Of a stretch of DNA of 64,000 nucleotides, positions 16,800 to 50,940 are shown in pieces. Position 1 is the first letter of the stretch. Every line of letters begins with the position of its first letter. The DNA is from an uncultured bacterium (GTDB taxonomy: Bacteria > Fermentibacterota > Fermentibacteria > Fermentibacterales > JCC-6). Made by a program: the position numbers and the translations under genes. A model generated the notes under the pieces. That model was not told the origin of the DNA. It saw nothing but the letters and a program-made list of their open reading frames with translations, and did not search any database. The stretch lies in the NCBI GenBank assembly GCA_965371785.1, contig CBDUZS010000002.1, forward strand, positions 2,362 to 66,361, read 5' to 3'.

Positions 16800-18232
16800 G
16801 AAGACCGAGAGCCCTTCTCACAACTCCTCTGCCACCGCTTGAAACAGGTCTGGCGACCTATGCGATCAGGGTACTCGACGGCACGAGTGATCTGATCGAC
16901 TGGACGGTTGCTTACACTCCGGGTTCCGACCCGGGGAGCCTGCCCGCGGAAATGACATCCATCCCCGTTGCAGAACTCCATGAACCTGCCCGAATCAGAA
17001 TTTTCCAGCTCGGTAATTCACCCCACTGTTTCGACGTGCTTTCTGCCCTCTACAGGTTCGGTGGAACAGGCCTGTTCCACGAGGTCCATCTCCATCACAT
17101 GATCAGGCATTGCTGCCTTGAGAGAGGTCTTCTGCCGGACTACTCCAGAGAACTGCGGTTCGAATACGGTCCCTCAGCCGAAGCCGTGGAGAAACTCCTT
17201 TCCATACGACCATCCGACGAGGCCGAATACGATGCAAGGCTCAAGCGTTATCCCCTTATTGCAAGGGCGGTTCATGCGTGCGGCAGCCTCGTGTGTCTCA
17301 ACGGCTACGCAGCCTCCATACTTCGCGGCAGAGGCAAGATGGTTACAACGATTCGTCACCCGCTGAGCAGGCTTCCCGATCGCCTCGAATCGATGGAGAA
17401 ACCCGGAGATCCCGTCATCGGGATGGCCGGAGGGTTCCACTACGGCCGAAATCTCGAATCGGTGATCAAGGCGGTGAGCATCCTGAGGAGATCGTGTCCC
17501 GATGCGGTTCTGCTCCTCGCGGGAGGGGGTTACCCGGAGGGGCTTCCCGACTGGGTCGTCAGGGCGTCTGGCAGGCTGCCTGAAAGGGAATACCAGCAGT
17601 GGATAAGGGTAATGGACGTTGCCGTTGACATACGCCACCCACCACTTGGTGAAACATCCGGGAGTCTGCTCGAGGTGATGAGGGCAGGGGTGCCCGCGGT
17701 TGTTTCCGCATCGGGAGCCTTCAATACACTGCCATCGGATTCGGTGACAAGAGTTCCGGTTGACAACCTGGTGCACGGCACCGCTGCTTCGCTCGAACTT
17801 CTTCTTGCAAGGGATGATCTAAGGCATTCCATGTCGGAAGCATCAAAGGCATGGGCTTCGGAGCAGGGCTCGCTTGAAGCACTCCGCAAGGACTGGATTT
17901 CCCTGATCGAAGAACAGGCTTTGCAGATTGATTCCACAGCAAGGGATAGAACACTCAACAGAAGGTCTCTCTCGCCCGCATGGCACGATGCGCCCCCTGG
18001 TTTCGAGCTGGACACATCGGGTAAAGCAGTTGCCTGGCGATTCGAAGGCACTGCGACGATCGAGGGTCCGTCCGGAGCAAGGGGAGCATGGGTCACGGCA
18101 AGAGGGCGCGGTGAAATTTCGGGCAGGACACTGTCGGAAACCGCCGCAGTGTACACAACGGCAGGCTCCTCGATCACGTTCAGCGGCAGGGGAGAGGTTA
18201 CGAACATCCACTGGTTGTCGGGAGAGATGTAA
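16796..18232 (+). CDS. glycosyltransferase family 4 (GT-B fold), with long C-terminal extension
   Basis: ATG 16796 overlaps the upstream stop (ATGA). GT4-like C-terminal core (GETSGSLLEVMRAGVPAVVSASGAF). Real N-terminus is MRRPRALLTTPL... Confidence 0.7.
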   Translation: MRRPRALLTTPLPPLETGLATYAIRVLDGTSDLIDWTVAYTPGSDPGSLPAEMTSIPVAELHEPARIRIFQLGNSPHCFDVLSALYRFGGTGLFHEVHLHHMIRHCCLERGLLPDYSRELRFEYGPSAEAVEKLLSIRPSDEAEYDARLKRYPLIARAVHACGSLVCLNGYAASILRGRGKMVTTIRHPLSRLPDRLESMEKPGDPVIGMAGGFHYGRNLESVIKAVSILRRSCPDAVLLLAGGGYPEGLPDWVVRASGRLPEREYQQWIRVMDVAVDIRHPPLGETSGSLLEVMRAGVPAVVSASGAFNTLPSDSVTRVPVDNLVHGTAASLELLLARDDLRHSMSEASKAWASEQGSLEALRKDWISLIEEQALQIDSTARDRTLNRRSLSPAWHDAPPGFELDTSGKAVAWRFEGTATIEGPSGARGAWVTARGRGEISGRTLSETAAVYTTAGSSITFSGRGEVTNIHWLSGEM

Positions 18233-19848
18233 TGAAACCGGCAGGACGACGGCTCCTGGCTGCTGCCGCCATTCTACTGCTGCTCATTCCTTTCCTGATC
18301 CATTTCATATTCAATGGTGAGGATATCGCAGGAGAACTTGCGGACGAAGCGATTATCTCCGGTGATTCGGATGTGTACGATTGTGTCTGGCATTTCTGGT
18401 GGGTAGGAAAAGCGCTTCGGATGGGAGCAGACCCTCGATTCTGCCCTTTGACTTTCTATCCCGAAGGCGCAACGGTTGCGTTTCAGAATATCGGATGGCC
18501 CGATACCTGGCTCATGGCTCTGACGGGTTTATCCGAAAAGAGTCCCGTGACGGCATACAACCTGTCCATTCTGTTCGGCACGATTCTGGCAGCCTGTGGA
18601 GCCTTCTGGGCCGCAAGACAGTGGGGATTGGATACCGTCGGCTGTTTCTTTGCAGCACTTGCCCTTGCATGGCTTCCATCAAGAATAGCCCACATGGGGC
18701 AACACTATCAGATCGCTTCGCTCGGGTATCTTGCCTTCAGCCTTGGTTCGATCAGAGCCTGGTTGACGGAGGGAAAAGCCTGGCAGCTCATCCTGGTCGT
18801 GCTCTTCTCGCTGCTTGCATGCCTCGAGAGCGCATACTTTGCCATGCTGGGAGGATTCGGCCTCCTGGCAACCATACTCCTCAGCTTGAATGAGATGGAT
18901 CACAAGGCGTACAGGATATGCATGCTGGTGCCTGCTTTCCTCGCGTCAGTAATAGCTGCCGGAGCGTTCTTCATGACTTCACCAGGGCTCGGAAGTGATA
19001 CCCCGGCTCTTTCCTGGCGGGAAGCGGTGTACTGGGCTGCCGACCCTCAGGCATGGCTCCTTCCGTCTCCCTACGGCATATTCGGCAGGCTTTTGTCAAT
19101 TCCGGCCAGGTTCTCATGGATGTCGAATTCCTTTGAGGGTGTGGTTACACCCGGTCTTACACTCATGGGTATCTTCATTCTGTCGGTGGTAAAGCGTAGA
19201 AAATGGTTACTTGCGGGGCTGATCTTGATTCTGGCGCTTCTCACCCTTGGACCCGAGCTGCGTATCTTCGGCCGGCCCCGGGGGATACCTCTTCCTTACA
19301 GGCTGATCCTGCTGGCTCCTCTTCTCGAAGGAGCAAGATCTCCATCGAGGTTTGCCCTGCTTGCGGGATTCTTCATCGCACTGGAGGCCGGACGGTATTT
19401 TTCGGCGGTTCGACTGAAATGGAAGCTCGTGCTCGGCAGCTGTCTTGTTCTTGAACTGATGCTCCCTTCTCTTGCGGTTATTTCGGGTTTCATTCCGGAG
19501 GAGTACGAACGGATGGGGGAATCTGAAGGTCCCTTGCTGGAGGTTCCGTCCTCCCCGCACGTGAGAAGGTACAGTTTCTTCCAGGTATCCGACGGTCTGC
19601 CCAGATTACTGAGCTTCATGGTAAGACCCGGGAGCAGCATAATACCGGAGAATCTCACGCCGTTCCGGCTCGAGACTTCGGAAATCCCGGACCGGCAGGA
19701 TGCGCTTGCCACGGGTGCAAAGCTGATCGTCTACAACAGGTGGATGTTCTCCGATCGGGAAAGGGAGATCTTTGACTCCAGGTTTTCCCCCCTTTTCGAG
19801 GGATTCGATACCGATGACTCGCTCTGGATCTGGAGGAGCGAAGAGTGA
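18232..19848 (+). CDS. polytopic membrane protein, putative GT-C-type glycosyltransferase
   Basis: 538 aa. About 10 predicted TM helices, then a soluble C-terminal domain. Acidic first-loop motif GDSDVYDCVWHFWW. Start overlaps the upstream stop (TAATG). Confidence 0.55.
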   Translation: MKPAGRRLLAAAAILLLLIPFLIHFIFNGEDIAGELADEAIISGDSDVYDCVWHFWWVGKALRMGADPRFCPLTFYPEGATVAFQNIGWPDTWLMALTGLSEKSPVTAYNLSILFGTILAACGAFWAARQWGLDTVGCFFAALALAWLPSRIAHMGQHYQIASLGYLAFSLGSIRAWLTEGKAWQLILVVLFSLLACLESAYFAMLGGFGLLATILLSLNEMDHKAYRICMLVPAFLASVIAAGAFFMTSPGLGSDTPALSWREAVYWAADPQAWLLPSPYGIFGRLLSIPARFSWMSNSFEGVVTPGLTLMGIFILSVVKRRKWLLAGLILILALLTLGPELRIFGRPRGIPLPYRLILLAPLLEGARSPSRFALLAGFFIALEAGRYFSAVRLKWKLVLGSCLVLELMLPSLAVISGFIPEEYERMGESEGPLLEVPSSPHVRRYSFFQVSDGLPRLLSFMVRPGSSIIPENLTPFRLETSEIPDRQDALATGAKLIVYNRWMFSDREREIFDSRFSPLFEGFDTDDSLWIWRSEE

Positions 19849-20978
19849 GTGAAATGCTCGATGTCGTACTGGACATGACTCCTGCCGCTCACAGCAGGGG
19901 AGGTGTGGGCAAATACCTGACACTGCTTGCGTCCAGCCTTCACGCCCACTCGCGGGAGGAAGGGCTGAGATTTCGCACCCTCGATATTCCCGCTGCCAGA
20001 CCGGGGACGCCTCCGCTGCCTGCCGAGCCGGATCTGACCCTCGGTAATCCGCTCTACCTCGGGATTCCCCTTCTGAGGCGGCTGCCGATAAGATATTCGC
20101 GGGAATTGCGTTCGAGAGGCAGGAGGCTGAGTACTCTTCTGGGGAAGAAGGGAATTTTCCACCACAGCGGGGTCCAGCCAGTCTGTCCCCGGGGATGGAC
20201 ATCCGTGCTGACAACGTTCGATCTCTCCGCAATTCAACATGAGAAATGGCATACGCTGGAGACCGTCTCGTACGGAGCCAGGGAGAAGCAGCTGACGGAG
20301 GAAGGCTCCAGGCTGATTGCCATCTCCCGATGGGCAGCCGGCGAGGCGGAATCATACTTTTCCCTTGAAAGCGGGACGGTAGGCATCGCCGGCGGCGCTG
20401 CGGGACCAATCTTCGTGCCGGGTGAACCAGACCCGGAATTCCTTGCGGAAAACGGTCTCGAAAGGGAACGATTCGTTCTGCACGTGGGCAGCTTCGTTCC
20501 GAGAAAGAACATTCCCTTCCTTCTTGAGGTTTATTCAGCCTGCGTCGATGACGGTTTCGACTATCCCCTCGTAATGGTGGGAGCAGAGGAGTGGGGAGAA
20601 CTGGATATCGATACAGGTCTTCCGTGGCTGCGAATCTTTTCGGGGATATCTGACGAAGACCTCCTGAGCCTTTACAGGGGAGCCAGAGCCGTTCTGCTCC
20701 CCAGCAGGTATGAGGGCCTCGGTTTCCCGGCACTCGAAGCCATGGCCTGCGGCAGACCTCTTCTCTGCAGCAATGCTGCAGCGCTTCCCGAAACCGTGGG
20801 AGACGGTGGGCTGCTGCTCGATCCGGATGACGCTCACGCCTGGCGCAGAGCCATATCGCACCTCGAGGACGATGAGCACCTGTCGATGCTCAGGAAAATG
20901 TCTGAAAGCGTTCACCGACGAACCTGGGAAGAGGTCGCATCGAATGCCGCGGCGTTCTACAGGAGCATATCCGAATGA
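19845..20978 (+). CDS. glycosyltransferase family 4
   Basis: C-terminal GT4 core (VGSFVPRKNIPFLLEVY...LLPSRYEGLGFPALEAMACGRPLLCSNAAALPE). GTG start overlaps the upstream stop. Confidence 0.8.
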   Translation: MSEMLDVVLDMTPAAHSRGGVGKYLTLLASSLHAHSREEGLRFRTLDIPAARPGTPPLPAEPDLTLGNPLYLGIPLLRRLPIRYSRELRSRGRRLSTLLGKKGIFHHSGVQPVCPRGWTSVLTTFDLSAIQHEKWHTLETVSYGAREKQLTEEGSRLIAISRWAAGEAESYFSLESGTVGIAGGAAGPIFVPGEPDPEFLAENGLERERFVLHVGSFVPRKNIPFLLEVYSACVDDGFDYPLVMVGAEEWGELDIDTGLPWLRIFSGISDEDLLSLYRGARAVLLPSRYEGLGFPALEAMACGRPLLCSNAAALPETVGDGGLLLDPDDAHAWRRAISHLEDDEHLSMLRKMSESVHRRTWEEVASNAAAFYRSISE

Positions 20979-22219
20979 AAATACTCCATCTCGTCCACAG
21001 GACCTGGCCGTATCACGGCGGCGCGGAGCGTTACGTCTGGGAGCATGCCGTTGCTGCTCAGCGATGGGGGCACGAGAGCACGGTGTACTCGACGGATGCA
21101 TGGGATATGTCCTGGCTTGTCTCGAACCGGGGCAAATCAGTCGATTCACCCGAGTCGTACAGAGACGGAGTCCGAATCGTGCGATTCAGAGTCCTTCATC
21201 CTCCTCTCCAGAACCTTCTGCGGGGAACGCTGCGGAGGCTGATGCCCTGTGGAGAGGACAGGTTCTTCTACCCTAACCCTTTCCTGCCCGGACTCCACTC
21301 GCGGCTGGGGAGAGACAGGGAGTTCGATTTCGTCCACGCGAACGCGATGCCTTTCCTTCTGTGGGAAGGGTTCGGATACGCTTCGAAAAGGGGAGCAGGT
21401 CTCGCGGCGGTTCCCCACGGGAATCTCGGTGAACGCTTCAGAAGAACGGCGGAGATTCGCTACCTTGCGGGATGTCAACCGGAAATCCTTCGGAAGAGCA
21501 GTGTAGTCGTAGCTCAGAATCGTTTCGAGAGAGATGTCTACGTCGACCTCGGTGTGGACCCGGAGAGGGTTCTCGTTCTGGGCAGCGGAGTGGATCCCCG
21601 GGAATTCGAGGGGGCTTCGAGGATTGCCGGAAGGAGAAGGCTGGGTATCGCGGAGGATGCGAGAGTAATCCTCACACTGACTGCGCTCTCGCGAGAGAAG
21701 GGAACGATTGCCCTCCTGAAATCCAGCCTGGATCTCTGGAGGAACGGAATGGACTTCACACTCGTTCTTGCCGGACCGAGAATGCCGGATTTCGATGTTT
21801 TTCTGCGAAGCATCGCAGAGCAGATCCCGCCGGGCAGGCTGATTCTTACGGGAATGGTGAAACGTGAGACAAGGGCTGATCTCATAGCGGCAGCAGACGT
21901 CTTTGCCCTGCTGTCGCGGCTTGATTGCTTCGGCATAGTTCTACTCGAAGCCTGGGTTTGCGGGTTACCCGTAGTGGGATGCTGGGCCGGCGCCATGCCG
22001 GATCTGATCGCAGACGGGGAGACAGGATTTCTCGTCGGTTTCGATGATACTGAGACGCTCGCATCCAGGCTGGGTGTCCTCATCGACTCGGAAGGTCTCA
22101 GAAGGGAGATGGGGAAAAAGGGGAAACGTCTCGTCGAAGGCAGATACACCTGGGACAGGGTTACCGACAGGTTCTACAGTCGAATCGCAGGATGCCTGAC
22201 GAAAGAGGGGATACGGTGA
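20975..22219 (+). CDS. glycosyltransferase family 4
   Basis: MKILHLVHRTWPYHGGAERYV N-terminus. C-terminal LSRLDCFGIVLLEAWVCGLPVVGCWAGAMPDLI...GETGFLV (EX7E-like). ATGA overlap with the upstream gene. Confidence 0.8.
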   Translation: MKILHLVHRTWPYHGGAERYVWEHAVAAQRWGHESTVYSTDAWDMSWLVSNRGKSVDSPESYRDGVRIVRFRVLHPPLQNLLRGTLRRLMPCGEDRFFYPNPFLPGLHSRLGRDREFDFVHANAMPFLLWEGFGYASKRGAGLAAVPHGNLGERFRRTAEIRYLAGCQPEILRKSSVVVAQNRFERDVYVDLGVDPERVLVLGSGVDPREFEGASRIAGRRRLGIAEDARVILTLTALSREKGTIALLKSSLDLWRNGMDFTLVLAGPRMPDFDVFLRSIAEQIPPGRLILTGMVKRETRADLIAAADVFALLSRLDCFGIVLLEAWVCGLPVVGCWAGAMPDLIADGETGFLVGFDDTETLASRLGVLIDSEGLRREMGKKGKRLVEGRYTWDRVTDRFYSRIAGCLTKEGIR

Positions 22220-23472
22220 GCAGGAGTGTAACGGTTGTCTCGGTTCTCTGGAATTCAGCCGGTCTGATTCCCGATCTTGCAGACACCCTTCGCGGCCTAT
22301 CCGATGAGTGCGATATCATCCTGGTAGACAACAATTCAACCGATGACACCGCAGATCTGGCAGCCAGTCTCATCCCGGATGCCAGAATCAAAAGAATGTC
22401 TCAAAACGGAGGTTTCGGCTGGGGCAACAACAGAGCGCTCGAAGAGGTTACCACACCCTTCATCCTCTTGTTGAACAGCGATGCAAGGATGGAACCCGAA
22501 TCACTGAAGAGCCTGCTGTCGGTAATGGACCGATACGAGAAAACAGCAGCCGTACAGCCAACTCTGAAGATATGGGACTGGCCGCTGCTCTCTGCGGGCA
22601 AGGGTGTATCCATGACCCGTTACGGAGAAGGTTATGACATTAATTTCCTTCACTTCTCTTCCGGCGCCGCGAAGGGAGATCCGGTACGCGTTCCGGGGGT
22701 AACCGCAGCGGTCTCACTGTGGAGAACGGCTGCACTCCAGGAGGTTTCCGGTTTTGACGAGGAAATATTCATGTACTTCGAGGACGTCGATCTGTCCATG
22801 AGACTGGCATCTGCTGGCTGGCGGTTCAGCCTTGCGACGGCAGCGACCGCGCTTCACAGAGCGGGAGCATCCAGTTCGAGGGAGAGGGCAGCGAAATGGG
22901 AACTGGAGTCATCCGTCTACCTGACGCGAAGGTACTTCGGATCCCGCTCATGTACCCTTCCTCCGTACTGGTGGAAGCGGGAATTGAGGATTCGGGCCCA
23001 CGGAATTATCAGACGCATTCCCTGGAAATGGAGAATTGGAGCCGTTAGAAGAGCATGCTCCATTCCGTGCACACCTGTCCGGCTGTCAGGTGAAGTGCTT
23101 TCCATGCTGCAGTCCAGACCGATGGAGCTTCCTCTGACCCGCAGTGCGCTTCGAGATAATCTGGATCCGGACGGCGTTCTGGAGGCCGGTCCAGGTTTCT
23201 CGAAGAGGGATGGACGGCTCTTCATTACACAGTATGGCTGTATACTCTCGAAGGCCAGGGGAGTGATATCGCTGGAACTGGTCACGCCTGACCGCTGCAG
23301 GAGCGGCTCCATCAGGAACGAGAGGGGAGATGTCCTCACACGATGGAACAGCATGCCCGGGGAAGTGGTTCATCTGAAAACAGGAGTTGCCCCTGCCGGT
23401 TCAAAGTTCTATCTCTCAATGGATGAGTACGATGCCACTGCGGAGGTAAAAAAGATTGTTCACCGTCGCTGA
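22216..23472 (+). CDS. glycosyltransferase family 2
   Basis: VSVLWNSAGLIPD...IILVDNNSTDDT...LLLNSDARMEP... A DxD-type GT2 fold. GTG start overlaps the upstream stop (GTGA). Confidence 0.75.
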   Translation: MSRSVTVVSVLWNSAGLIPDLADTLRGLSDECDIILVDNNSTDDTADLAASLIPDARIKRMSQNGGFGWGNNRALEEVTTPFILLLNSDARMEPESLKSLLSVMDRYEKTAAVQPTLKIWDWPLLSAGKGVSMTRYGEGYDINFLHFSSGAAKGDPVRVPGVTAAVSLWRTAALQEVSGFDEEIFMYFEDVDLSMRLASAGWRFSLATAATALHRAGASSSRERAAKWELESSVYLTRRYFGSRSCTLPPYWWKRELRIRAHGIIRRIPWKWRIGAVRRACSIPCTPVRLSGEVLSMLQSRPMELPLTRSALRDNLDPDGVLEAGPGFSKRDGRLFITQYGCILSKARGVISLELVTPDRCRSGSIRNERGDVLTRWNSMPGEVVHLKTGVAPAGSKFYLSMDEYDATAEVKKIVHRR

Positions 23473-23473
23473 C

Positions 23474-24274
23474 ATGAGGAAAAGCTCAAAGCTGCATGTC
23501 AGGCTGGGAGCCTGGCTCATCCTGTCGATACTCCTTCTGCTCACCAGGAGCTTTTCATGGCTTTCCGCCGGACTGATCGCCGGTGCCCTTCCGCCTGCTC
23601 TCCAGCTCCGGGAGAATCTATTCATGAGGGTATGTCTGCTCCTTCTGGCGATCGCTGCCGTTCTGCCCCTCGATTCACAGTCATCAGCGCTTGTGATGGC
23701 GTCAGGAATGTTGCTCGTATTGAACGGTAAATCTCTGCTCATCAGAGTAACGGGACTATGTTCGATCCTGCTCGCGGCGCTGCAGGGTTCGGTTAGCGGT
23801 CTGATGTTCATCCTGATCCTTTCTGCGATTTCAGTGTTTCCCCCGAGCAGGAAGTGGAGACTCGCCACGATGGCGCCTGGGCTGATCCTGTGCCTCGTAA
23901 TAGCCGGTCTGCCCGATGCGCGCCTTCATCCGGAACGGGTAGCACAGGAACGGCATATCGAGGATCGTCTTGCATGGACTTACGTTCCGGCCCTGACTGC
24001 GGGATCACCGGCAGTCCTCTTCAGAACTTCGTCCACGGACGGGGGAGTCCTGCACGTACCGGTGGATGCGGGAGGTGTCAGGGATGATCTGCCCGTCGGC
24101 ACAATCCTGACGGGGGAGCAGAGCATCACATTCGGAGCAGGGAGGGACACTCTGAACGTTCCTTTCAACGCCGGCGATACCGTTCGTGTGTGGATATCCA
24201 GGCCATGGGCTGCGTTCGAGCATACGATTATCCACTTCGGGCATTGCTGGACATCACCGAAGGAAGGATCATGA
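23474..24274 (+). CDS. hypothetical membrane protein
   Basis: Four hydrophobic segments at the N-terminus (LGAWLILSILLLL..., VCLLLLAIAAVL..., LCSILLAAL..., APGLILCLVIAGL), then a ~100-aa soluble tail. ATG 23474 is 1 nt after the upstream stop. Confidence 0.45.
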   Translation: MRKSSKLHVRLGAWLILSILLLLTRSFSWLSAGLIAGALPPALQLRENLFMRVCLLLLAIAAVLPLDSQSSALVMASGMLLVLNGKSLLIRVTGLCSILLAALQGSVSGLMFILILSAISVFPPSRKWRLATMAPGLILCLVIAGLPDARLHPERVAQERHIEDRLAWTYVPALTAGSPAVLFRTSSTDGGVLHVPVDAGGVRDDLPVGTILTGEQSITFGAGRDTLNVPFNAGDTVRVWISRPWAAFEHTIIHFGHCWTSPKEGS

Positions 24275-26358
24275 GACTGACTGCACTCCTCCGCAGGTAC
24301 CAGGGGGCAGTCTTCCCCCTTTTCGCGGGAATCCTCGTGTTCGCAGTCTGGAGAATCACCGGAATGCCGGCTCCCGGCACCCATGGAAGGCTTGTGCCGC
24401 TCGCATGGGCTCTCCTGTCCCTTGTATCCGGGAGGCTCAGGGTTCACCGGCTCTCCGTACTGTTCCTGACGATGTTCGTCCTGCTCTCTGTCTTCTGGCA
24501 TACCGGCCGGGTTGTCGAGCTGCTTGCGGTTTCCTTTGCTGTCCTGGGGATGCTTCCGGCGATGCTGTCACTGGCCGGAAAAGGTATCTGGGGTCCCGCA
24601 AGGGCTGCGGTCCCTCTCTTCCTGCTCAGCGTTCTGCTGGTTCCATTCGAAGGAGACGAACCTCATTACGGCGCCCTGACAGAGGATCTTGCCGGGGGCG
24701 GATCGGAAGTATTCGGTGAGCCAGGAGGACAGACTGGTGACATGGAGGGGGGGGAATCCCACCACACGAAGGCTTTTCCCTTGCTGCTTCTACCGGGATA
24801 CCCTCTCGGGGTAATCGGTGTGAGAACGGTTTCCTTTCTGATGGCGCTGGCATCTTCCGTTCTCCTGGCCCTCATCTACAGAAGGGCGAATGTCCCTTCC
24901 GGCGGTAAACTCGCGCTCATGGGCATGGTTCTCCTGCCCGGGGCAGGCATACTCGGTCTCCTGTATCCTGGCTGGCTTGCACTGGGACTTTTTTGCGCAG
25001 GGGCGTTATGGGGAATGAAAGGCAGGCTTGGGCTTCCCATCGTAATCCTGGTCACACTAGTACTCACAGCCATCAAATTCCGTTTCTTCTTTCTGGGGGC
25101 GGGACTCTTCCTCGTATGGTTCATCAGGCTCCCCTCTCAATGGAAGTTCAGGGCACTCGCCCTCGTCATCGGGGGAGCCGCGATGGTGCTCGTCGCTGAT
25201 TTCTTCCTGCTCGGCGGCAATCTCTTCTGGAACCGGTACGGTAACACCGGTGTGATCATGCTGGTCTGGACTAACATCACGCAAAGGACAGGTTCACTCG
25301 TTCTCGCACCGTTTGCAGCCCTGCTCGATATCGAAGCGGGTTTGATCTGGAAAGCTCCGTGGCTGCTTCTGTCCTTTGCCGGTATTCCAGAACTTCGAAG
25401 AAGGTTTCCAGACCTCTTCCTTACCCTTGGACTCCCATCCCTCATTTACATCGCGGTTCTCTTCCTCTGGATGCCTGCCGGGTGGCACGGTCTGCCCACC
25501 CCTCCTGGAAGGTTCTTCATTCCCCTGCTGCCTTTCATGCTCGCGTCTGCCTCCATGCTGCTCCACAAACCATCGGCGAAGGTGTTGCTGTGGCTATCTC
25601 TGATGGTCACCGCCCTCTGCATAGCCGACCCATGGCTGAGGTTCAACCACGCTGACGGTACCGACGCTCTGGTTAAACTTTTCTCCGGCGGATCCCACTC
25701 CCTGACCGCATGGCTTCCTACACAGGTAAGGCCGGCCCTGCCGCCTTTCCTGATCTGGGGAGCCTTCTTCTCATCCCTCATAATTCTGGTGAAGAGGACG
25801 AGGTGGGGAGTCTTATTTGCGCTTCTGGCAGCATCCATAGCAGTCGGATCCGTTGTCAGAACTGCTCCCTCTTCGTGGGAAGCCGAGGATCTGGGAGCCT
25901 GCGAAAGGACCGGATGTGTCATCTACCCTTCTGACGTTGACCCCGATCGCAGGAACTACTGGCTTTTCGACAGACAGCTGATGCTCCATCTCGAGCATCC
26001 ATCTGACCGCATAACTCTTGATATTCCTCCGGGAAACGGTGATTCCGTGACGGTAGCGATCGTTTTGAGAGGTTTCGCCTCCGATACCGAATGTCCGGGT
26101 ATAGTTATCTCGTGCGGAAGCAGTACGTTCACTGCATTCCTCGATTCGGAAACACGACCGCCTCCTTCCTGGGTGAGCATGTTCAGGCGGGGCAGAGAGA
26201 TAGACAGAATCCCCGAAAATCTTGCCGATACGACCCTGTCGTGTGTGCTGTGCAATGAGCAGGGCAATCCACTAGTCATAGAGCCTGTACCATGGGCAGA
26301 TGACCAGGGGCTCCTGTTCGGGCTCTATCTGGACAGGATAGAGGTTCGAGTGAGATGA
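24271..26358 (+). CDS. polytopic membrane protein, GT-C-type glycosyltransferase-like (PMT/ArnT-like acidic loop)
   Basis: About 13 TM helices. First extracytoplasmic loop carries EGDEPHYGALTEDLAGG, reminiscent of the DE catalytic motif of GT39/GT83 enzymes. C-terminal ~180-aa soluble domain. ATGA overlap with the upstream gene. Confidence 0.55.
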   Translation: MRLTALLRRYQGAVFPLFAGILVFAVWRITGMPAPGTHGRLVPLAWALLSLVSGRLRVHRLSVLFLTMFVLLSVFWHTGRVVELLAVSFAVLGMLPAMLSLAGKGIWGPARAAVPLFLLSVLLVPFEGDEPHYGALTEDLAGGGSEVFGEPGGQTGDMEGGESHHTKAFPLLLLPGYPLGVIGVRTVSFLMALASSVLLALIYRRANVPSGGKLALMGMVLLPGAGILGLLYPGWLALGLFCAGALWGMKGRLGLPIVILVTLVLTAIKFRFFFLGAGLFLVWFIRLPSQWKFRALALVIGGAAMVLVADFFLLGGNLFWNRYGNTGVIMLVWTNITQRTGSLVLAPFAALLDIEAGLIWKAPWLLLSFAGIPELRRRFPDLFLTLGLPSLIYIAVLFLWMPAGWHGLPTPPGRFFIPLLPFMLASASMLLHKPSAKVLLWLSLMVTALCIADPWLRFNHADGTDALVKLFSGGSHSLTAWLPTQVRPALPPFLIWGAFFSSLIILVKRTRWGVLFALLAASIAVGSVVRTAPSSWEAEDLGACERTGCVIYPSDVDPDRRNYWLFDRQLMLHLEHPSDRITLDIPPGNGDSVTVAIVLRGFASDTECPGIVISCGSSTFTAFLDSETRPPPSWVSMFRRGREIDRIPENLADTTLSCVLCNEQGNPLVIEPVPWADDQGLLFGLYLDRIEVRVR

Positions 26359-37588: not shown

Positions 37589-37617
37589 ATTCAGATTTTC
37601 ACGGAGGTTGACTGGTA

Positions 37618-38079: not shown

Positions 38080-38682
38080 ATGGCAACCGTCAGTTTCAGT
38101 GCCAGGGAGATCGACTGCAAGATAGTCTACTGCGGTCCAGGCCTTTCCGGTAAGACGACCAACGTCCAATGGATACACAAGACGATTCCGCAAGATGCCA
38201 GAGGTAAGCTCATATCCCTTGCCGCAGGCAACGAGAGAACTCTCTTCTTTGATTTTCTTCCCATAGACACGGGTGAGATCAACGGGTTCAAGTTAAGACT
38301 TCATCTGTACAGCGTTCCGGGGCAGGCCATGTACTCCGATAGCAGAAGGCTCATACTCCAGTGCGTCGACGGTATCATTTTCGTAGCCGATTCGCAGATC
38401 GAGAGAATGGAAGCAAACCTGGACAGCCTGCGCGATCTCAAGGAGAACCTTCGCCGTCAGAAGAGAAAGGGAGTCAGCCTTATTCTTCAGGCGAACAAGA
38501 GGGATCTTCCCAATATCATTACAACCGATGAACTCATTACAACTCTCAGGCTGAACAGGATTTCCTGCGTCGAATCCGTCGCATGTGACGGCGTAGGAGT
38601 TTTCGAAACCCTCCGCAAGGTCAGTCGCATGGTGATCGGAAGGCTCCGCAGACAGTTCATGAGCTTCGAGGGAAGGGCCTGA
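38080..38682 (+). CDS. mglA: MglA-family Ras-like small GTPase
   Basis: 200 aa. REIDCKIVYCGPGLSGKTTN (P-loop). TLFFDFLP. LHLYSVPGQAMY (catalytic Gln context). FVADSQIERMEAN. NKRDLPN. Near-collinear with Myxococcus MglA. Confidence 0.85.
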   Translation: MATVSFSAREIDCKIVYCGPGLSGKTTNVQWIHKTIPQDARGKLISLAAGNERTLFFDFLPIDTGEINGFKLRLHLYSVPGQAMYSDSRRLILQCVDGIIFVADSQIERMEANLDSLRDLKENLRRQKRKGVSLILQANKRDLPNIITTDELITTLRLNRISCVESVACDGVGVFETLRKVSRMVIGRLRRQFMSFEGRA

Positions 38683-43290: not shown

Positions 43291-46200
43291 AAACAGAAGG
43301 ACTTCTCGATTCTGACAGGAAAACGGTTCGAACGGATCGGCTACTCGTTCTGCTCACTGCCCTGATAGCCGCAGCTGTCTACATGTCAACGCTCGCATCC
43401 ACGGTCAGCTTCTGGGACAGCGGGGAATACATTACATGTTCATGGGTTGCAGGAGTTCCTCATCCTCCGGGTGTACCGCTTTTCGTTCTCAGCGGAAGGT
43501 TCAGCACGCTGCTCTTCTCATTCCTTCCCTCGATAGCCCAGAGAGTCAACCTGCTCTGCGCTCTTTCAGGCGTGATATCCATTGCCCTCGTATCCCGGCT
43601 CGTTCAGCGCTGGGCGCATCGGATGGGTTTCTCCTCCTCTACTTACAGACCCATGTCGATGCTTGCAGGTCTCCTTTCGGCATTCAGCTACAGTGTCTGG
43701 AGGAACAACAACGGCACTGAAACCTATGCGGTGGCACTTCTTCTTTCGATGATCATTCTCTGGGTTTTCGACCTCTGGCTTGTCCGGAGATCGCATGACC
43801 AGCCGGCAGGCAGACTGCTCCTGCTCCTGGGATATCTCATAACACTGTCCATAGCAAACCATCTCAGTGCGCTGATAGTCGTTGCGCCAATCACTCTTGT
43901 GTACGTTCACTACGCGGTCAGAAAGAAGACCAGGAGCTGGATGAAGCCAGGATTCGTTCTGACTTTCATTGGACTCATGGTCCTTGCGTTCAGCATCCAC
44001 CTCTACATGCCTATCAGAGCGGTCCAGGGACCCGAGATCAACGAAACGAACCCAGGCCAGTGGGAATCCTTCAGACAGGCCCTTGCAAGGGAGCAGTACG
44101 GTCAGGTCTCGATCTTCAGCAGGAAGGGTCCGTTCGGGGAGCAGCTGGCCCTCTACATGGAGTACCTGTCATGGCAGACGGGCAGGCCATCTGCATGGAA
44201 CAGCCTCCTGGGCCGGGGAGGCCAGAGGATCGGAACGGTCATCTGGGTTCTTCTTATGGCAGGTGTCGTCTACGGACTCATTACGCTTGGAGCCAGGCGG
44301 CCCGATTTGCTCCTGTTGATAGGATTCACATTCCTCATGGCCAGCTTTGCGTTCGTGGTGTATCTGAATTTCAAGACCGGACCCGAGGGCACTTCTGCAG
44401 GGGAAGTGCGGGAAAGGGATTACTTCTTTGGTGCATCCTTCGTTTTCTTTGCCATGCTGGCTTCCATCGGACTCGTCTCCGCTCTCAGGGAGCTCATCAG
44501 AAAAAGGAGGAGGAGGTACATCTGGGCTCTGATGCTGATTCCCGCAGTCAGCCTTGCCGTGAATTACCATCGATGCGACCGATCTGGTGATTTCATTGCC
44601 CACGACTACGGTGTTAACCTGCTCGAATCCTGCAGTGAAGGCGCCGTACTCATCACCAACGGCGACAACGATACTTTCCCGCTCTGGTTTGCCCAGGGCG
44701 TTCTGGGTGTCAGGAGAGACGTGATCGTGAGCAATCTCAGCCTCATGAACACTCCATGGTATACAGAGCAGCTTATCGAGCGCGATTCCCTGCTCCTGAG
44801 CTACGGCGCAACCGATCTCGTGGACTCCCTCCGGGCGATATTCATCTGGGGCCCCGATTTCTTCCATGTCGGGGCCGAAGCCCTTCCGGAATGGAGCAAC
44901 GCCGATAATCTCGTACTCAGGTCTACATTCGATCAGAAATGGCCATGGGCTGTCATATCCGAAGAATTTGCCGCAGTTGTACCCAACATGGGGCTGGGGT
45001 CACAGGGAGCGGTTCCAATGCAGGATCTTCTGCTCTTCGACATGATCAGCAATCAGTCCGTCCACGGGAGAGACATATACTTTGCCGGAACGGTTGCCAC
45101 CGACAACAGGGCCTACTTCCAGGATTACCTCGAAATGGAGGGCATAGCTTTTCACCTGGTCGATCACCCCGTCATCGAGGCAGTCAATTCTGAACGCGGC
45201 TGGGATCTCCTTGACAGCTACCAGTACACGGGACTCGACGATCCTGACGTATTCAAGGGCGATCAGGCCAGACAGCTGGCCAGGAATTACGTTTCGGCCT
45301 GTCACAGGCTTGCCTACCATCATATCGCAGCCGGTGAGCCCGAACAGGTAGCCAGGGCTCTCCAGATGGCAGAACAGATCATGATCACCATGCAGGATGA
45401 ATGGCACCAGATACTTCCCCAGCAGTCCCTTATAGAGGCAAGGCTTGTCGATGGTCTATATGGTCCGCAAGCCGCAATCGACACGATTTTCCTCCGCGCA
45501 GACAAGGTTTCTGCCTGGGCCAGCCGGACTGGAAACACCAGGATGGCAGGCGCCGCGATGGGCCTGGTGCAGATTTCCGAGGAGTTTCAGCAGGAACAGG
45601 CTTTCAGAGAGGTTATCGCGGATCTGGATAACGGATCCGTGGCCTCGGCCTGGCTTCGAATCGAAGTCGATCTCTCCTTCGGGAACTTCATCTCGGCCTG
45701 GAACGTCTACGCAGAGCTCGAAAGGGATCACCCGGACGATCCATTGCTGCCTCTCGTAGGCGACTTCCTCGAAACCGCAGCTTCCGGAATGAGTATTCAT
45801 ACGCGCCTGAACCTGACGAGAAGCGCTGTATTCACCGTTTTCGAATTCTACGACCAGGAAGTCCAGGACAGGTTCGTATGGACCGAAGAGATAGAACTCG
45901 AGCCGGTTCTCATGGCGGTCACGTCACACCTGGCGGAAGGCAGAATTCTGCCCGGCTGCGCGGCCGGGCTTCTACTCGCCGAGAGAATAGCCGACCCCTA
46001 CGAACGCGGCATGGTCGGCAGCTACATCGAATGGATTCTTTCCGAGCCCGACGGAGCGGTTGAACTTGCCGTCTGGTTCCTCCTAGAAGGAAACAGATCA
46101 TCCTGGGAATCGGTTGCCTGGCAGAGCATTCGAGTCGGCAACTACCCACTTGGATGGCTGGCTCTGAGTCTTTCCGGAAGTACTTCCACGGAAGCTCTGG

Positions 46201-46301
46201 AGAGTCTTCTCCACTCTCCTGACGCCTATCTGAACGGCATGCCGGAACCGGGCATGGCCAGAGGCGTCTACTCGTGGACGAACGCATTGATTGGAGACTG
46301 A
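43287..46301 (+). CDS. DUF2723/TMEM260-like polytopic membrane protein (GT-C-type glycosyltransferase-like) with large C-terminal TPR-like domain
   Basis: 1004 aa. N-terminal FWDSGEYI motif, characteristic of DUF2723. About 11 TM helices. About 600-aa soluble C-terminal region with TPR-like helical repeats. GTGA overlap with the recombinase gene. Confidence 0.7.
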   Translation: MKTEGLLDSDRKTVRTDRLLVLLTALIAAAVYMSTLASTVSFWDSGEYITCSWVAGVPHPPGVPLFVLSGRFSTLLFSFLPSIAQRVNLLCALSGVISIALVSRLVQRWAHRMGFSSSTYRPMSMLAGLLSAFSYSVWRNNNGTETYAVALLLSMIILWVFDLWLVRRSHDQPAGRLLLLLGYLITLSIANHLSALIVVAPITLVYVHYAVRKKTRSWMKPGFVLTFIGLMVLAFSIHLYMPIRAVQGPEINETNPGQWESFRQALAREQYGQVSIFSRKGPFGEQLALYMEYLSWQTGRPSAWNSLLGRGGQRIGTVIWVLLMAGVVYGLITLGARRPDLLLLIGFTFLMASFAFVVYLNFKTGPEGTSAGEVRERDYFFGASFVFFAMLASIGLVSALRELIRKRRRRYIWALMLIPAVSLAVNYHRCDRSGDFIAHDYGVNLLESCSEGAVLITNGDNDTFPLWFAQGVLGVRRDVIVSNLSLMNTPWYTEQLIERDSLLLSYGATDLVDSLRAIFIWGPDFFHVGAEALPEWSNADNLVLRSTFDQKWPWAVISEEFAAVVPNMGLGSQGAVPMQDLLLFDMISNQSVHGRDIYFAGTVATDNRAYFQDYLEMEGIAFHLVDHPVIEAVNSERGWDLLDSYQYTGLDDPDVFKGDQARQLARNYVSACHRLAYHHIAAGEPEQVARALQMAEQIMITMQDEWHQILPQQSLIEARLVDGLYGPQAAIDTIFLRADKVSAWASRTGNTRMAGAAMGLVQISEEFQQEQAFREVIADLDNGSVASAWLRIEVDLSFGNFISAWNVYAELERDHPDDPLLPLVGDFLETAASGMSIHTRLNLTRSAVFTVFEFYDQEVQDRFVWTEEIELEPVLMAVTSHLAEGRILPGCAAGLLLAERIADPYERGMVGSYIEWILSEPDGAVELAVWFLLEGNRSSWESVAWQSIRVGNYPLGWLALSLSGSTSTEALESLLHSPDAYLNGMPEPGMARGVYSWTNALIGD

Positions 46302-46836
46302 CTTGAAAATACATGCCACGACGGTAATAGGCATCGTGAGAAACGGCAGGGCCGCAATGGCTGCCGACGGCCAGGTTACGCTTGGCGACACCATCGTAAA
46401 GAATACCGCAATGAAGATAAGGAAACTGAGTAACGGAAGTGTACTGGTAGGATTTTCCGGTACCGGGGCGGATGCATTTGCGCTGGTCGAAAGACTCGAA
46501 GAAAAACTCGAGGCGTTCAGGGGGAATCTCCCGAGGGCAGCGGTCGAACTGGCCAGGGAATGGAGATCGGACAAGTACCTGAGAGAGCTCAACGCTCTTC
46601 TTGCGGCAATCGACAAGAACCATTCCCTCCTGATCGGAGGTTCAGGTGAAGTCGTCGAAGCCCCGGACGGAATAGTAAGCGTCGGATCGGGCCATGCATA
46701 TGCCCTGGCTGCAGCCAGAGCGCTGGACACACATACGAACATGACCCCTGCAAGAATCGCAAAGGAAAGCATTGCCATAGCCTGCGACATCTGTATCTAC
46801 ACCGGGGGAGACATCCAGGTGGAGGAAATATGCTGA
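46291..46836 (+). CDS. hslV: ATP-dependent protease subunit HslV (CodW-like N-terminal extension)
   Basis: ...KIHATTVIGIVRNGRAAMAADGQVTLG...GFSGTGADAF...GSGHAYALAAARAL. The catalytic Thr pair is preceded by IHA, as in B. subtilis CodW (SSFHATT). Start is TTG at 46291 or 46303. Confidence 0.9.
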   Translation: METDLKIHATTVIGIVRNGRAAMAADGQVTLGDTIVKNTAMKIRKLSNGSVLVGFSGTGADAFALVERLEEKLEAFRGNLPRAAVELAREWRSDKYLRELNALLAAIDKNHSLLIGGSGEVVEAPDGIVSVGSGHAYALAAARALDTHTNMTPARIAKESIAIACDICIYTGGDIQVEEIC

Positions 46837-48149: not shown

Positions 48150-48179
48150 CTCAGGCATCGGTTGAACACTGGAGATGGT

Positions 48180-48758
48180 ATGCACAGATCGGGAAACGAA
48201 GTTGCCTACAAGATCGTATTCTACGGTCCGGGTCTTTCCGGAAAAACGACAAACCTCAGGGGAATCAGGGATTTCATAGCTCCGGAGAACCGCGGTCGCC
48301 TGGTCACGCTCTGCACGCGGGGTGAGAGAACCGTGTTCTTCGATTTCCTTCCGATCAACTTCGCAAACATTGCCGGAACCCGGATCAAGCTGCATCTCTA
48401 CTCCGTACCCGGCCAGGCCTACTACGCGCTCAGCCGTCGTGTGATACTCGATGGCGTCGACGGGCTCGTCTTCGTGGCCGACAGCCAGTTGGAAAGGTCC
48501 GATGCCAATCTCGACACGATGGACGATCTCGATCACAACCTGCAGTCGTACGGGCTCAGACTCCAGAGCATCCCACTTGTCCTCCAGTTCAACAAACGCG
48601 ATCTTCCGGGAATAACTGACGTCGAAACCATGAACATGGATCTCAACAGGAATGGCTGGCCAACCGTCGAATCGGTTGCACTCGGAGGTCATGGTCCCGC
48701 CGAAACCCTCAAAATCATCTCCGCTATCATGGCCAGACGTCATGTCAGCAAGGGCTGA
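48180..48758 (+). CDS. MglA-family Ras-like small GTPase, second paralog
   Basis: MHRSGNEVAYKIVFYGPGLSGKTTN. TVFFDFLP. LHLYSVPGQAYY. FVADSQLERSDAN. NKRDLPG. GGAG 5 nt upstream of ATG 48180; the track start at 48162 is also possible. Confidence 0.8.
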   Translation: MHRSGNEVAYKIVFYGPGLSGKTTNLRGIRDFIAPENRGRLVTLCTRGERTVFFDFLPINFANIAGTRIKLHLYSVPGQAYYALSRRVILDGVDGLVFVADSQLERSDANLDTMDDLDHNLQSYGLRLQSIPLVLQFNKRDLPGITDVETMNMDLNRNGWPTVESVALGGHGPAETLKIISAIMARRHVSKG

Positions 48759-50940
48759 GGGCTCAAAGAAAACAAATACTGCATACGTAACCTTCATCTT
48801 CCTTATCGTGTGCGCCGCATTCTTCTTCAGAAGCTGGTTCGCCTCTGATATCCTTCCTCCACCCGGGCGAATGCAGGGAGAAACAACCCAGGCATACCGG
48901 TATTCACGCATGATCTCGGAAGGTGAACCCGTTCCATCCACGGATATCATGGTGATGCATCCGGAAGGCATGAACACGGGCGAGAACTCAATTTTCGAAG
49001 AGTACATCGCCGGGGGGATTCACGCCCTCATCGGTGGAGATTTCAACACTTTCATGAGGTTCTTCAGCATCTTCTTTCCGCTGCTCGCCATTCCAGGGCT
49101 CATCCTGTGGATGCAAAGGGGCGGGATTCCCATGCGAAGCGCTCTTCTGGGGGGAGCTGCTTACGGGATTCTCCTGCCGGCACTCCTTCGTACGAGAGGG
49201 GAGTCTCTTTACAGGGAAACGGTTGCCCTCCCTCTTCTCGTCTGGATGGGATGGGCGGTGGAGTCTGCGCTGGCCACGGGAAAAAAGGCTCATGCTGTCA
49301 CATCCGCTCTGCTTCTTTTCGCAGCACTTGCAGCCTGGAAAGTTACCGGGTTCATGTCCGCCTTTCTCTTCTTCTACCTGCTCTACCGCTCCTGCAGGCG
49401 AAAGGATGTTTCTCCGTTCCTTGCAGGAATGCTTGCGGCAACACAGATACTGGCTTCCCTTTTTCTCTCGCACATGAGGCATGATTTCGCGATTTTATCT
49501 CCAGCAACGGTGCTGGCGTTCTTCCTGCTGCTCTCGATATTCCTCAGGAGGTCGTACATCCCATGGGCAGGCCTGCTTCTGGCACTGGCTGCGGGACTGA
49601 CAGGTTCCTCGAGCACCGGGCATCTGGGTGCGGTCATCACGGCAAAACTGAGGTTCTTCTTCTCTCACCCCTCGGATCCTTCTCTCCTCGATCCAGACGC
49701 CAGGCTCTTCTGGGTCTCCGGATACACGAGCCCATCACCGGGGAATATCATTCTGCTGTTCGGGCTCCCCATTCTCATCGCAGTCTCCGGTATGCGCAGG
49801 TTCGTGAGTGAGCATGGGAGAACACTGCTGCTGTGGTTTCTCCCCATGGCATTTGCCGGCTACCTCTTCTTCGACAGACTTCACGTCATGCTCGCAGTTG
49901 CCCTGATCCCTCCGATTGCACTCGTAATGAAAAGGTACTGGAAACCTGTTGTTGTTTTACTCCTGCTTGCACTTCAGACGATCTTTGTCATTGCATTGGC
50001 GAGGGGCATCGACAGTGCCGGTCTCGAGACCGGCAGCTCCGGATCTTTGCTTCGTGATGATGAGCTGGACTCGCTTTTCGAATGGATAGACGACTACACG
50101 GAGCCCGGTGACGCCTTCCTCAGCTTCTGGCATATCTCCGGCCTTATATCGGCATACGCGGAACGCCCCGTGGTTACCCATACATTCTTCGAAAACGAGA
50201 GCAACAGAAGGACGATCGTAGAATACGCCGAACGAACGTATCAACCCGAGGACAGTCTGCTTGTATTCATGCGCATGCATGACGCAGATTACTACGTGTA
50301 CCAGGCGGATTTCATACTGGACAGGTCATCGGCAGGACTCCTGTACCTTTCCGGGCTCACGGAAGTCCCCGATAACTGCGTTGCTCTGAGGATGCACTAC
50401 GCACCGGAAACGCTTGATTCCCTCATGCTCGTATTCCAGGGGGCCTCGCTTCGGGTCTTCGGCCGCGGCGATGACTCAGCGTACATTCTTCCACAGCCCC
50501 TTTTCAAAATCAGGTACTACCCGTTCTTCAGTGATTACGATGCTGCAATGTCTGCTCTTCTCTTCCCTGGTGAGACGGCATGGAACCTCGCCTGGGAAGG
50601 GCGGGAGACCGCCGAACCTGACATGGTATCCGCAGCCCTGCTTCTGATTTCAGGCTCGGGAGCCATCCCCGAAGACGCAATCGGTATTCTCCAGGAACTG
50701 GTCATGTTCCATCTCCAGAGAGGATACGAAATGGAATACCTCGAAGAGGACTTTCTTGTGTATCTTCACTACTACGGGCCGGATCCTGCCATAAGACTGG
50801 ATCTGGCAAGGCTCCTTGTTTCGGAAGGACTGCTGGAACGTGCTGCAGTACAGTACCGAAAGGTGCTCTCTGAGGATCCTTCCGCAGTCCAGGCAGCCAT
50901 CGAGCTCGAGCAACTTATGGCGGAGGGCATTTCGGAATGA
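48742..50940 (+). CDS. polytopic membrane protein (GT-C-like) with C-terminal periplasmic domain and TPR-like tail, translationally coupled to the mglA paralog
   Basis: About 730 aa. At least 11 TM helices. Soluble C-terminal ~330 aa ends in helical repeats (ARLLVSEGLLERAAVQYRKVLSEDPSAVQAAIELEQ). ATG 48742 overlaps the GTPase gene 3' end by 17 nt. Confidence 0.5.
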   Translation: MSARAEGSKKTNTAYVTFIFLIVCAAFFFRSWFASDILPPPGRMQGETTQAYRYSRMISEGEPVPSTDIMVMHPEGMNTGENSIFEEYIAGGIHALIGGDFNTFMRFFSIFFPLLAIPGLILWMQRGGIPMRSALLGGAAYGILLPALLRTRGESLYRETVALPLLVWMGWAVESALATGKKAHAVTSALLLFAALAAWKVTGFMSAFLFFYLLYRSCRRKDVSPFLAGMLAATQILASLFLSHMRHDFAILSPATVLAFFLLLSIFLRRSYIPWAGLLLALAAGLTGSSSTGHLGAVITAKLRFFFSHPSDPSLLDPDARLFWVSGYTSPSPGNIILLFGLPILIAVSGMRRFVSEHGRTLLLWFLPMAFAGYLFFDRLHVMLAVALIPPIALVMKRYWKPVVVLLLLALQTIFVIALARGIDSAGLETGSSGSLLRDDELDSLFEWIDDYTEPGDAFLSFWHISGLISAYAERPVVTHTFFENESNRRTIVEYAERTYQPEDSLLVFMRMHDADYYVYQADFILDRSSAGLLYLSGLTEVPDNCVALRMHYAPETLDSLMLVFQGASLRVFGRGDDSAYILPQPLFKIRYYPFFSDYDAAMSALLFPGETAWNLAWEGRETAEPDMVSAALLLISGSGAIPEDAIGILQELVMFHLQRGYEMEYLEEDFLVYLHYYGPDPAIRLDLARLLVSEGLLERAAVQYRKVLSEDPSAVQAAIELEQLMAEGISE

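Follow-up and report, generated by a model that had tools for sequence, protein, structure and literature searches.

The subject of this analysis is a stretch of 64,000 nucleotides (here called the window) from contig CBDUZS010000002.1 of GenBank assembly GCA_965371785.1, and in particular four genes therein for large membrane proteins, which we name M1 to M4, together with a gene for a family 2 glycosyltransferase (GT2) at positions 16041–16799. These five genes had in an original prediction been read as a single polyprenol-phosphate-dependent system for protein O-glycosylation. We could confirm the observations behind that prediction, and its interpretation found support in part. It is, in our judgement, reasonably likely that the region instead consists of two independent units, both conserved in the phylum Fermentibacterota: an envelope-glycan operon that includes M1, M2 and the GT2, and a second unit with M3 and M4, in which M3 is a candidate protein O-glycosyltransferase. 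The window is assigned to the chromosome of an uncultured bacterium of that phylum (candidate division Hyd24-12; Ca. Aegiribacteria/Fermentibacteraceae), and for each of M1, M2, M3 and M4 the nearest homologues with a named source were from Fermentibacterota.

Two tight operons in a syntenic chromosomal backbone

A gene map built from Pfam, NCBIfam and PDB searches placed the genes of the region on the plus strand throughout, in the following arrangement:

12912–15572, + strand, mutS
16041–30138, + strand, operon 1, with 11 genes
18232–19848, + strand, M1, 538 amino acids; predicted GT-C glycosyltransferase with a fold like those of oligosaccharyltransferases and AftD
24271–26358, + strand, M2, 695 amino acids; predicted GT-C glycosyltransferase with a C-terminal domain like a carbohydrate-binding module (CBM)
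After operon 1, + strand, genes for HPF, HprK, HPr and PtsI
33922–37588, + strand, second small sugar cluster, with genes for an RmlA-like nucleotidyltransferase, two GT4 glycosyltransferases and a Hpre_diP_synt_I protein
38080–38682, + strand, small GTPase, then at 38682–40154, + strand, a protein of 490 amino acids
Between the gene for that protein and operon 2, + strand, topA
Operon 2, + strand, with xerC, M3, hslV, hslU, the gene for an Arf-like GTPase, M4, dapF and then downstream genes
43287–46301, + strand, M3, 1004 amino acids; bacterial GT-C of the TMEM260/DUF2723 family, candidate protein O-glycosyltransferase
48742–50940, + strand, M4, 732 amino acids; polytopic protein restricted to the phylum, with a weakly detected TPR tail; probably a GT-C like Dpy19/STT3
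Downstream of dapF, + strand, genes for a CDP-alcohol phosphatidyltransferase and a GT9 heptosyltransferase, and polA

The four open reading frames were found on the plus strand where they had been proposed, with lengths agreeing with those of database homologues, and all four proteins were polytopic, with about 11 membrane helices in the model of M1 and about 17 in that of M2, and with some 10 or more hydrophobic stretches in each of M3 and M4 as judged by hydropathy only. The GT-C membership that had been suggested for all of them was strongly supported for M1, M2 and M3, and is probable for M4. Each protein was also found to have conserved acidic loop residues (M1 D45/D47, M2 D129/E130, M3 D44/E47 and M4 E47/D68, all of them invariant or nearly so), for which the models and the positive-inside rule suggest a periplasmic location. 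None of the four proteins resembled Wzy, WaaL or a transporter, identities that we rejected for M1 to M4 as neither fold nor profile comparisons gave a match, and the case that the original prediction had named as refuting it did thereby not arise. In pairwise hhalign comparisons among the four families there was never a significant score (probabilities 0.3–21%), and a common origin of M1 to M4 is thus not visible from sequence.

That all of these genes would form one system did not agree with their arrangement, since they are distributed over two separately conserved tight operons with 17 kb of unrelated genes between them. The spacing between genes was +2 to −28 bases in operon 1, and +12 to −17 bases in operon 2 from xerC onward. 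The gene order of operon 1 recurred in three other Fermentibacterota genomes (L001, L009 and L010), having M1 and M2 proteins just 32–42% identical; L009 and L010 matched it gene for gene, while in L001 the last GT2 gene was missing and two small genes of the other strand intervened. The order topA, xerC, M3, hslV, hslU, GTPase, M4 and dapF was found again on an Aegiribacteria contig (L002), on which the mutS-to-polA stretch was syntenic as a whole. That the four GT-C genes are so near each other should thereby be seen as inherited backbone order, and gives no evidence of their functional coupling.

M3 as a bacterial TMEM260-family protein, and its neighbor M4

The following features of M3 and M4 were of importance for their assignment:

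43410–43430, + strand, FWD44SGEY motif of M3 (residues 42–48); D44 corresponds to human D52; invariant in 6 orthologues
44658–44672, + strand, NGD460ND motif of M3; D460 corresponds to the human catalytic base D441; invariant in 6 orthologues
48162–48758, + strand, Arf-like small GTPase directly upstream of M4 (Pfam Arf 1.5e-4, below cutoff)
50125–50142, + strand, F-W463-H-I-S-G467 motif of M4, aligned with STT3 W-W-D-Y-G-Y (HMMER)

The DUF2723 motif FWDSGEY, with its link to the TMEM260 family, had been correctly noted in M3, which matched the TMEM260-like family PF11028 of Pfam at 2.2e-32 (112.7 bits, compared with a gathering threshold (GA) of 24.2). Residues 27–496 of M3 aligned with human TMEM260 (PDB 9rql) at an E-value of 1.8e-17, with the alignment extending to human residue 477, within the Rossmann-like domain. 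The human enzyme requires six residues, of which two are in the first loop (D52 and H67), two in the donor-lid loop (R264 and Y267) and one in transmembrane helix 10 (R355), the sixth being D441, which in the luminal Rossmann-like domain is the catalytic base deprotonating the peptide Thr (bioRxiv 10.64898/2026.03.17.711096). In the alignment to 9rql these residues corresponded to D44, H59, R268, Y271, R377 and D460 of M3, respectively, which were all invariant in six Fermentibacterota orthologues having about 50% identity. One M3 orthologue carried TMEM260_N together with PF28495 TMEM260_2. Judged by these alignments, M3 is a true member of the TMEM260 family, with a predicted active site that is intact.

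Because the luminal catalytic base is kept in M3, it can be argued that its acceptor would be a peptide hydroxyl, as in the human enzyme, an analogy that builds upon one characterized homologue. M3 alone among the four looks like a protein O-glycosyltransferase, and we propose that it would most likely take one sugar from a polyprenyl-phosphate donor and attach it to Ser or Thr residues of extended periplasmic polypeptides. The gene is inserted between xerC (42103–43290) and hslV (46291–46836), with stop and start codons overlapping on both sides. The xerC-hslV-hslU trio is a widespread conserved gene arrangement in bacteria, so that the insertion of M3 interrupts an ancient housekeeping arrangement in Fermentibacterota. 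With regards to bacteria, only 'distant homologs' of TMEM260 have been mentioned (PMC10214176), and in the literature that we searched such homologues were noted with no study of any of them found.

M4 was found to be a core gene restricted to Fermentibacterota, as a metagenome scan for distant relatives gave just orthologues at 45–65% identity and no bridge to a known family, and it is a candidate for a new CAZy family. The protein is quite probably a GT-C, as suggested by several sequence signals. Its match to Dpy19 in Pfam was sub-threshold (3.7e-5, 22.6 bits compared with a GA of 27.2), M4 itself gave no STT3 match there, and among 32 homologues there were matches to Dpy19 in 11, to PMT in one (weak, 1.2e-4) and to STT3 in one. 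Using the M4 family profile against PDB, one STT3 sequence was obtained (8i9p_Lh, E 0.0038), with no second STT3 sequence among the 60 matches listed. In these alignments 'sfWHISGlvsAYaerP' of M4 was paired with 'SWWDYGYQIGGMADRP' of the PDB STT3, and 'RGESLYRE' with STT3 'RSVAGSYDNE'. W463, S466 and G467 were invariant and H464 was at least 90% conserved, and hhalign of the M4 family to the M1, M2 and M3 families gave no significant link. Of two TPR-like tails that had been proposed, the one in M4 was detected, if weakly (0.0076 for TPR_14 in Pfam, and 1.7e-4 for designed TPR proteins when the family profile was used), whereas M3 gave no match to Pfam TPR models at E<=0.01. Within the second unit, M4 would be a probable GT-C that is specific to the phylum and bears a TPR tail.

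Two small GTPases of the Ras superfamily are encoded in the region. The one at 48162–48758 overlaps the start of M4 by 17 bases, a pairing that is kept in Aegiribacteria (L002), and the other, at 38080–38682, directly precedes the gene for the 490-amino acid protein (38682–40154), which gave weak RING/zinc-ribbon-like matches.

Operon 1 and its surroundings

The genes of operon 1 come in the order GT2, GT4-like, M1, GT4, GT4, GT2, small membrane protein, M2, GT2, histidine kinase and response regulator, with these features in addition to M1 and M2 themselves:

16041–16799, + strand, GT2 of the polyprenyl-phosphate sugar synthase class (ArnC/GtrB/DPMS), first gene of operon 1
16802–18232, + strand, GT4-like glycosyltransferase (Pfam Glyco_trans_1_4 3.2e-7); position kept in L001, L009 and L010
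18364–18372, + strand, D45-S-D47 acidic motif of M1, directly before the first loop helix (48–63 in the model)
19845–20978 and 20975–22219, + strand, two GT4 genes, followed at 22192–23472, + strand, by a GT2 (Pfam); order kept in three other genomes
23456–24274, + strand, small polytopic membrane protein of no recognized family, overlapping the start of M2
24652–24669, + strand, G-D129-E130-P-H-Y acidic motif of M2, predicted to be periplasmic
25873–26355, + strand, C-terminal beta-sandwich of M2, CBM6/35/36-like (residues ~535–695)
26355–27173, + strand, GT2; 27170–28840, + strand, histidine kinase; 28837–30138, + strand, sigma54-dependent response regulator (Pfam); with 4-base overlaps, at the end of the operon

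The first GT2 had been predicted to be a polyprenol-phosphate sugar synthase, and its sequence matches placed it in that class. It matched Pfam Glycos_transf_2 at 1.1e-28 and in PDB gave ArnC at 6.8e-18 (full length), GtrB at 9e-10 and DPMS at 4e-7, being nearest to ArnC; in NCBIfam it had full-length matches to ArnC, dolichyl-P-hexose transferase and AglJ, which were all below cutoff, and every full-length match there was to a polyprenyl- or dolichyl-phosphate glycosyltransferase. The protein has a single hydrophobic helix, C-terminal, at about residue 223, whereas no hydrophobic segments are present in the other two GT2s of operon 1, whose matches are to different types of GT2.

As for the sugar, the mannose implied by the original prediction left no sign anywhere in the window. 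The sole local sugar-nucleotide enzyme, a nucleotidyltransferase at 33922–34902, matched long-form RmlA at 7.3e-65 compared with 2.2e-27 for mannose-1-phosphate guanylyltransferase in NCBIfam; we rejected GDP-mannose pyrophosphorylase as its identity, the PDB search being ambiguous and NCBIfam preferring long-form RmlA. In the same cluster (33922–37588), one of the GT4 proteins was nearest to the BshA and GlcN-PG synthase models, and the Hpre_diP_synt_I protein is a membrane protein.

M1 and M2 were also compared directly with Pfam and NCBIfam, which even at E up to 10 gave nothing usable, and the profiles of these two families gave no GT-C match among PDB sequences, so that the assignment of their folds required structure prediction. 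For M1, the nearest solved folds were the STT3, AglB and PglB oligosaccharyltransferases and Dpy19, with AftD and AftA scoring equally well, and the model strongly supports that M1 is a GT-C glycosyltransferase. Across 33 homologues D47 did not vary, and the conservation of D45 was 90% or more. A WWDYG-type motif was absent from M1, as was an STT3 match in Pfam. The DUF6311 (PF19830) label on M1 homologues could not be reproduced with our local Pfam copy and is a database label only; with that copy, one of the 33 homologues matched PTPS_related and one matched DUF6057.

The model of M2 likewise strongly supports a GT-C fold. Its acidic motif had been described as a DE motif in the first loop, and the motif was indeed present as GDEPHY at residues 128–133, with no variation at F126, D129, E130 or P131 among 14 homologues and with the D-E pair kept in the 32%-identical orthologue of L010, but it follows upon the fifth helix of the model and not the first. 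By the positive-inside rule, it would be in the periplasm. At the C-terminus, comparison of the model with solved structures showed a beta-sandwich fold matching those of CBMs. Known CBM-bearing GT-Cs (EmbA-C, AftD and the GT136 protein ORF12) work on glycans (PMC11127046), and the CBM6/35/36-like domain suggests a glycan as the most likely acceptor of M2. At close range the M2 family had 14 proteins, and its profile reached 457 cluster representatives (E<=1e-3), with matches that begin at the D-E motif. Of these representatives, ten were sampled, which had 578–1101 amino acids and came from Acidobacteriota, Thermoanaerobaculia and CSSED10-310; none had a Pfam domain in the membrane part, and one had weak TPR-type matches in its tail. 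M2 is thus a member of a GT-C family outside Pfam coverage, and this family, with about 457 cluster representatives in Fermentibacterota, Acidobacteriota and other phyla, is a candidate new CAZy family.

M1 and M2 are accompanied in operon 1 by seven cytoplasmic glycosyltransferases (four of GT4 type and three GT2). The membrane protein at 23456–24274, of roughly 250 amino acids, had no match in the Pfam, NCBIfam or PDB searches, and in L001, L009 and L010 its position was held by a Pfam-less protein of 230–262 amino acids; by position, it may be a candidate for a flippase or accessory role. The histidine kinase and sigma54-dependent response regulator genes always terminate the operon in L001, L009 and L010, overlapping the last glycosyltransferase genes, which suggests that envelope-glycan genes are co-transcribed with a two-component system across the phylum.

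The seven cytoplasmic glycosyltransferases together with the CBM-like domain of M2 favor a glycan, lipoglycan or glycolipid as the product of operon 1, and its strict conservation in the phylum speaks for a signature structure of the envelope, and not for an O-antigen or capsule locus of the variable kind, so that the operon probably produces a signature envelope glycoconjugate of this uncultured phylum. We propose that the cytoplasmic GT4 and GT2 enzymes would build a glycan for this conserved glycoconjugate, with the ArnC/GtrB/DPMS-type GT2 loading a sugar onto polyprenyl phosphate and with M1 and M2, after flipping, moving the lipid-linked sugar to an acceptor on the periplasmic face. Going by fold and family, the GT-Cs would use polyprenyl-(di)phosphate-linked donors. 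The GT2 could also supply donors in trans to the second unit, which would be the sole plausible link between the two.

A number of neighboring genes should also be mentioned. The HprK gene is seemingly split into overlapping open reading frames in different frames, one at 30836–31216 without a Pfam match and one at 31131–31874 with a partial N domain and the C domain, followed by an HPr-sized open reading frame at 31878–32150; the Aegiribacteria HprK orthologue is intact, with 332 amino acids, and the split may reflect a frameshift or an assembly error. A gingipain-like C25 peptidase at 4534–6828 has a weak type IX secretion system (T9SS) C-terminal sorting domain (Por_Secre_tail 1.1e-4, below cutoff), and a CotH kinase that bears a PKD domain is encoded near it, as is a DUF5916 protein (1104–2705, − strand; 2768–4030, − strand); L002 also has an FG-GAP protein with a weak Por_Secre_tail. 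The sorting domain and these neighbors are compatible with a T9SS-bearing lineage. The CDP-alcohol phosphatidyltransferase (52420–53109) and the GT9 heptosyltransferase (54694–55605) are both kept in L002, and the latter suggests a heptose-containing lipopolysaccharide (LPS) core in Fermentibacterota.

Alternative explanations and comparison with known systems

Some points weigh against the reading as two units in which operon 1 makes a glycan and the other unit includes M3 as a protein-modifying enzyme. The call of M4 as a probable GT-C rests on sub-threshold sequence signals, with one PDB STT3 scoring. The M1 and M2 structures are predictions and the M2 alignment had 14 sequences only, and a CBM-like fold is by itself no proof of glycan binding. 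The nearest structures to M1 are protein oligosaccharyltransferases, so that a protein acceptor for M1 is possible, and operon 1 is without an initiating phosphoglycosyltransferase, a Wzx or ABC exporter or a GtrA-type flippase, so that its acceptor may be a lipid-linked glycan, a glycolipid or a protein.

Of the other explanations, the one that fared best, though we regard it as rather unlikely, holds that there is no protein glycosylation and that the role of all four GT-Cs is to decorate or extend glycans or lipids of the envelope (LPS core/lipid A, lipoglycan or exopolysaccharide), with the likeness of M3 to TMEM260 being one of shared donor binding and fold only. For most characterized bacterial GT-Cs the substrates are indeed lipids or glycans (as for ArnT, Gtr*, Emb/Aft, PimE and GT136), the GT9 heptosyltransferase indicates LPS synthesis, and no characterized bacterial TMEM260 homologue was found in the literature, which has only the mention of distant ones. 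However, M3 keeps the equivalent of D441 besides the donor-binding residues, M3 and M4 are encoded outside the glycan clusters, and the TPR tail of M4 is typical of protein recognition.

The explanation from the original prediction, by which the four GT-Cs and the GT2 would form one Ppm1/Pmt-like system using polyprenyl-P-mannose from the GT2 for modification of secreted, outer-membrane or T9SS targets, we consider improbable. It agrees with all four being GT-Cs or probably so, with a GT2 of the right class, with the intact catalytic residues of the TMEM260-like M3 and the TPR tail of M4, with STT3, AglB and PglB being structurally nearest to M1, and with a T9SS-type cargo gene in the window. 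On the other hand, the operons are separate and 17 kb apart within a wholly syntenic region, where proximity is uninformative, and the seven cytoplasmic glycosyltransferases beside M1 and M2 would be needless in a single-sugar Pmt-type pathway. Moreover, M2 has a CBM-like domain, no PMT, PMT_2 or MIR domain was found by Pfam in any of M1 to M4, and the nucleotidyltransferase is RmlA-like (7e-65 compared with 2e-27). It is also doubtful that operon 1 would be a pgl-like protein glycosylation locus, in which an oligosaccharide built on undecaprenyl diphosphate by the GT4 and GT2 enzymes would be transferred en bloc to proteins by M1 and M2 with the ArnC-like GT2 would then add a periplasmic side-branch sugar, since M1 has neither a WWDYG-type motif nor an STT3 Pfam match and is scored equally by AftD and AftA, the operon has no initiating PglC/WecA-type enzyme or recognizable flippase, and the Pgl matches are generic GT4/GT2 similarity far below cutoffs.

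Returning to the two-unit reading, a further step would be that Fermentibacterota, and possibly other bacteria of the Fibrobacteres–Chlorobi–Bacteroidetes (FCB) group, have a eukaryote-style protein O-glycosylation with a lipid-monophosphate donor, in which M3 is a working bacterial TMEM260. This we hold as a tentative possibility only. The active site of M3 would then be split in the same way, with a synthase of the Dpm1/ArnC type feeding it, and M4, with its TPR tail, would be another GT-C directed at proteins and a relative of Dpy19 and STT3. If true, the metazoan TMEM260 pathway would have its prokaryotic ancestors or analogues in M3 and M4, which would also point towards the still-unidentified O-glycosyltransferase class of FCB lineages. 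The statement in the original prediction that such a system is not described for T9SS-bearing FCB lineages needs qualification, as the general O-glycosylation of Bacteroidota is well studied, with its O-oligosaccharyltransferase still unidentified in 2022 (PMC8729774); our literature search found no paper that paired Fermentibacteria with glycosyltransferases. Protein O-mannosylation by TMEM260 was recognized only in 2023, with a structure in 2026, and with a bacterial protein in which no essential residue is lost, not even the unusual catalytic base of the luminal domain, the hypothesis becomes concrete and testable.

Compared with human TMEM260 (9rql/9rqm/9rqn; PF11028), M3 is alike in its above-threshold Pfam match, in the alignment over residues 27–496 and in the six essential residues. 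It differs in being bacterial and having 1004 amino acids, the solved chain having 729 residues, in its helical tail of about 500 residues without Pfam TPR, in a donor that would be of undecaprenyl type instead of dolichyl, and in being encoded in a housekeeping operon. Human TMEM260 is 707 amino acids long.

Operon 1 resembles assembly of glycans or lipoglycans, of the kind carried out by Emb, Aft and GT136 enzymes, more than Pmt-type protein mannosylation. Like the three-component systems (GtrA/GtrB/Gtr*; CsbB/YfhO; Citrobacter GT136, PMC11127046), it pairs a GT2 of the GtrB/ArnC class with GT-Cs, and M2 has the combination of GT-C and CBM found in GT136 ORF12 (PMC11127046). Unlike them, however, it has no recognizable GtrA, MATE or SMR flippase, holds two GT-Cs per one recognizable polyprenyl-phosphate synthase, and is phylum-invariant instead of serotype-specific, with M1 and M2 being in other sequence families. 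With the mycobacterial Ppm1-dependent GT-Cs (PimE, AftA/B/D and EmbA-C) it shares the logic of GT4 enzymes, a polyprenyl-P-sugar synthase and several GT-Cs; AftD, AftA, AftB and PimE were among the top structural neighbors of the operon 1 GT-C models, and Emb and AftD bear CBMs, but there is no detectable sequence homology and the host is a diderm bacterium of the FCB lineage. The actinobacterial Ppm1/Pmt system (GT39) differs in its PMT and MIR domains, which M1 to M4 are without, and M2, which bears the D-E motif, has a CBM-like domain and not a protein-binding one.

With regards to STT3, AglB, PglB and Dpy19, finally, these have the nearest solved folds to M1, and in M4 'sfWHISG..AY..R' is similar to STT3 'WWDYGY', and 'YRE' to 'DNE'. 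M1, at 538 amino acids, is nevertheless much shorter and has a small periplasmic domain only, WWDYG is absent from both M1 and M4, and the M4 scores were all below curated thresholds. The kind of enzyme, GT-C, is itself known, and the findings for M1 to M4 do not overturn current understanding; new here are a bacterial TMEM260 orthologue, a Pfam-less GT-C and CBM family, a DUF6311-type GT-C and a probable phylum-specific GT-C that is Dpy19/STT3-like.

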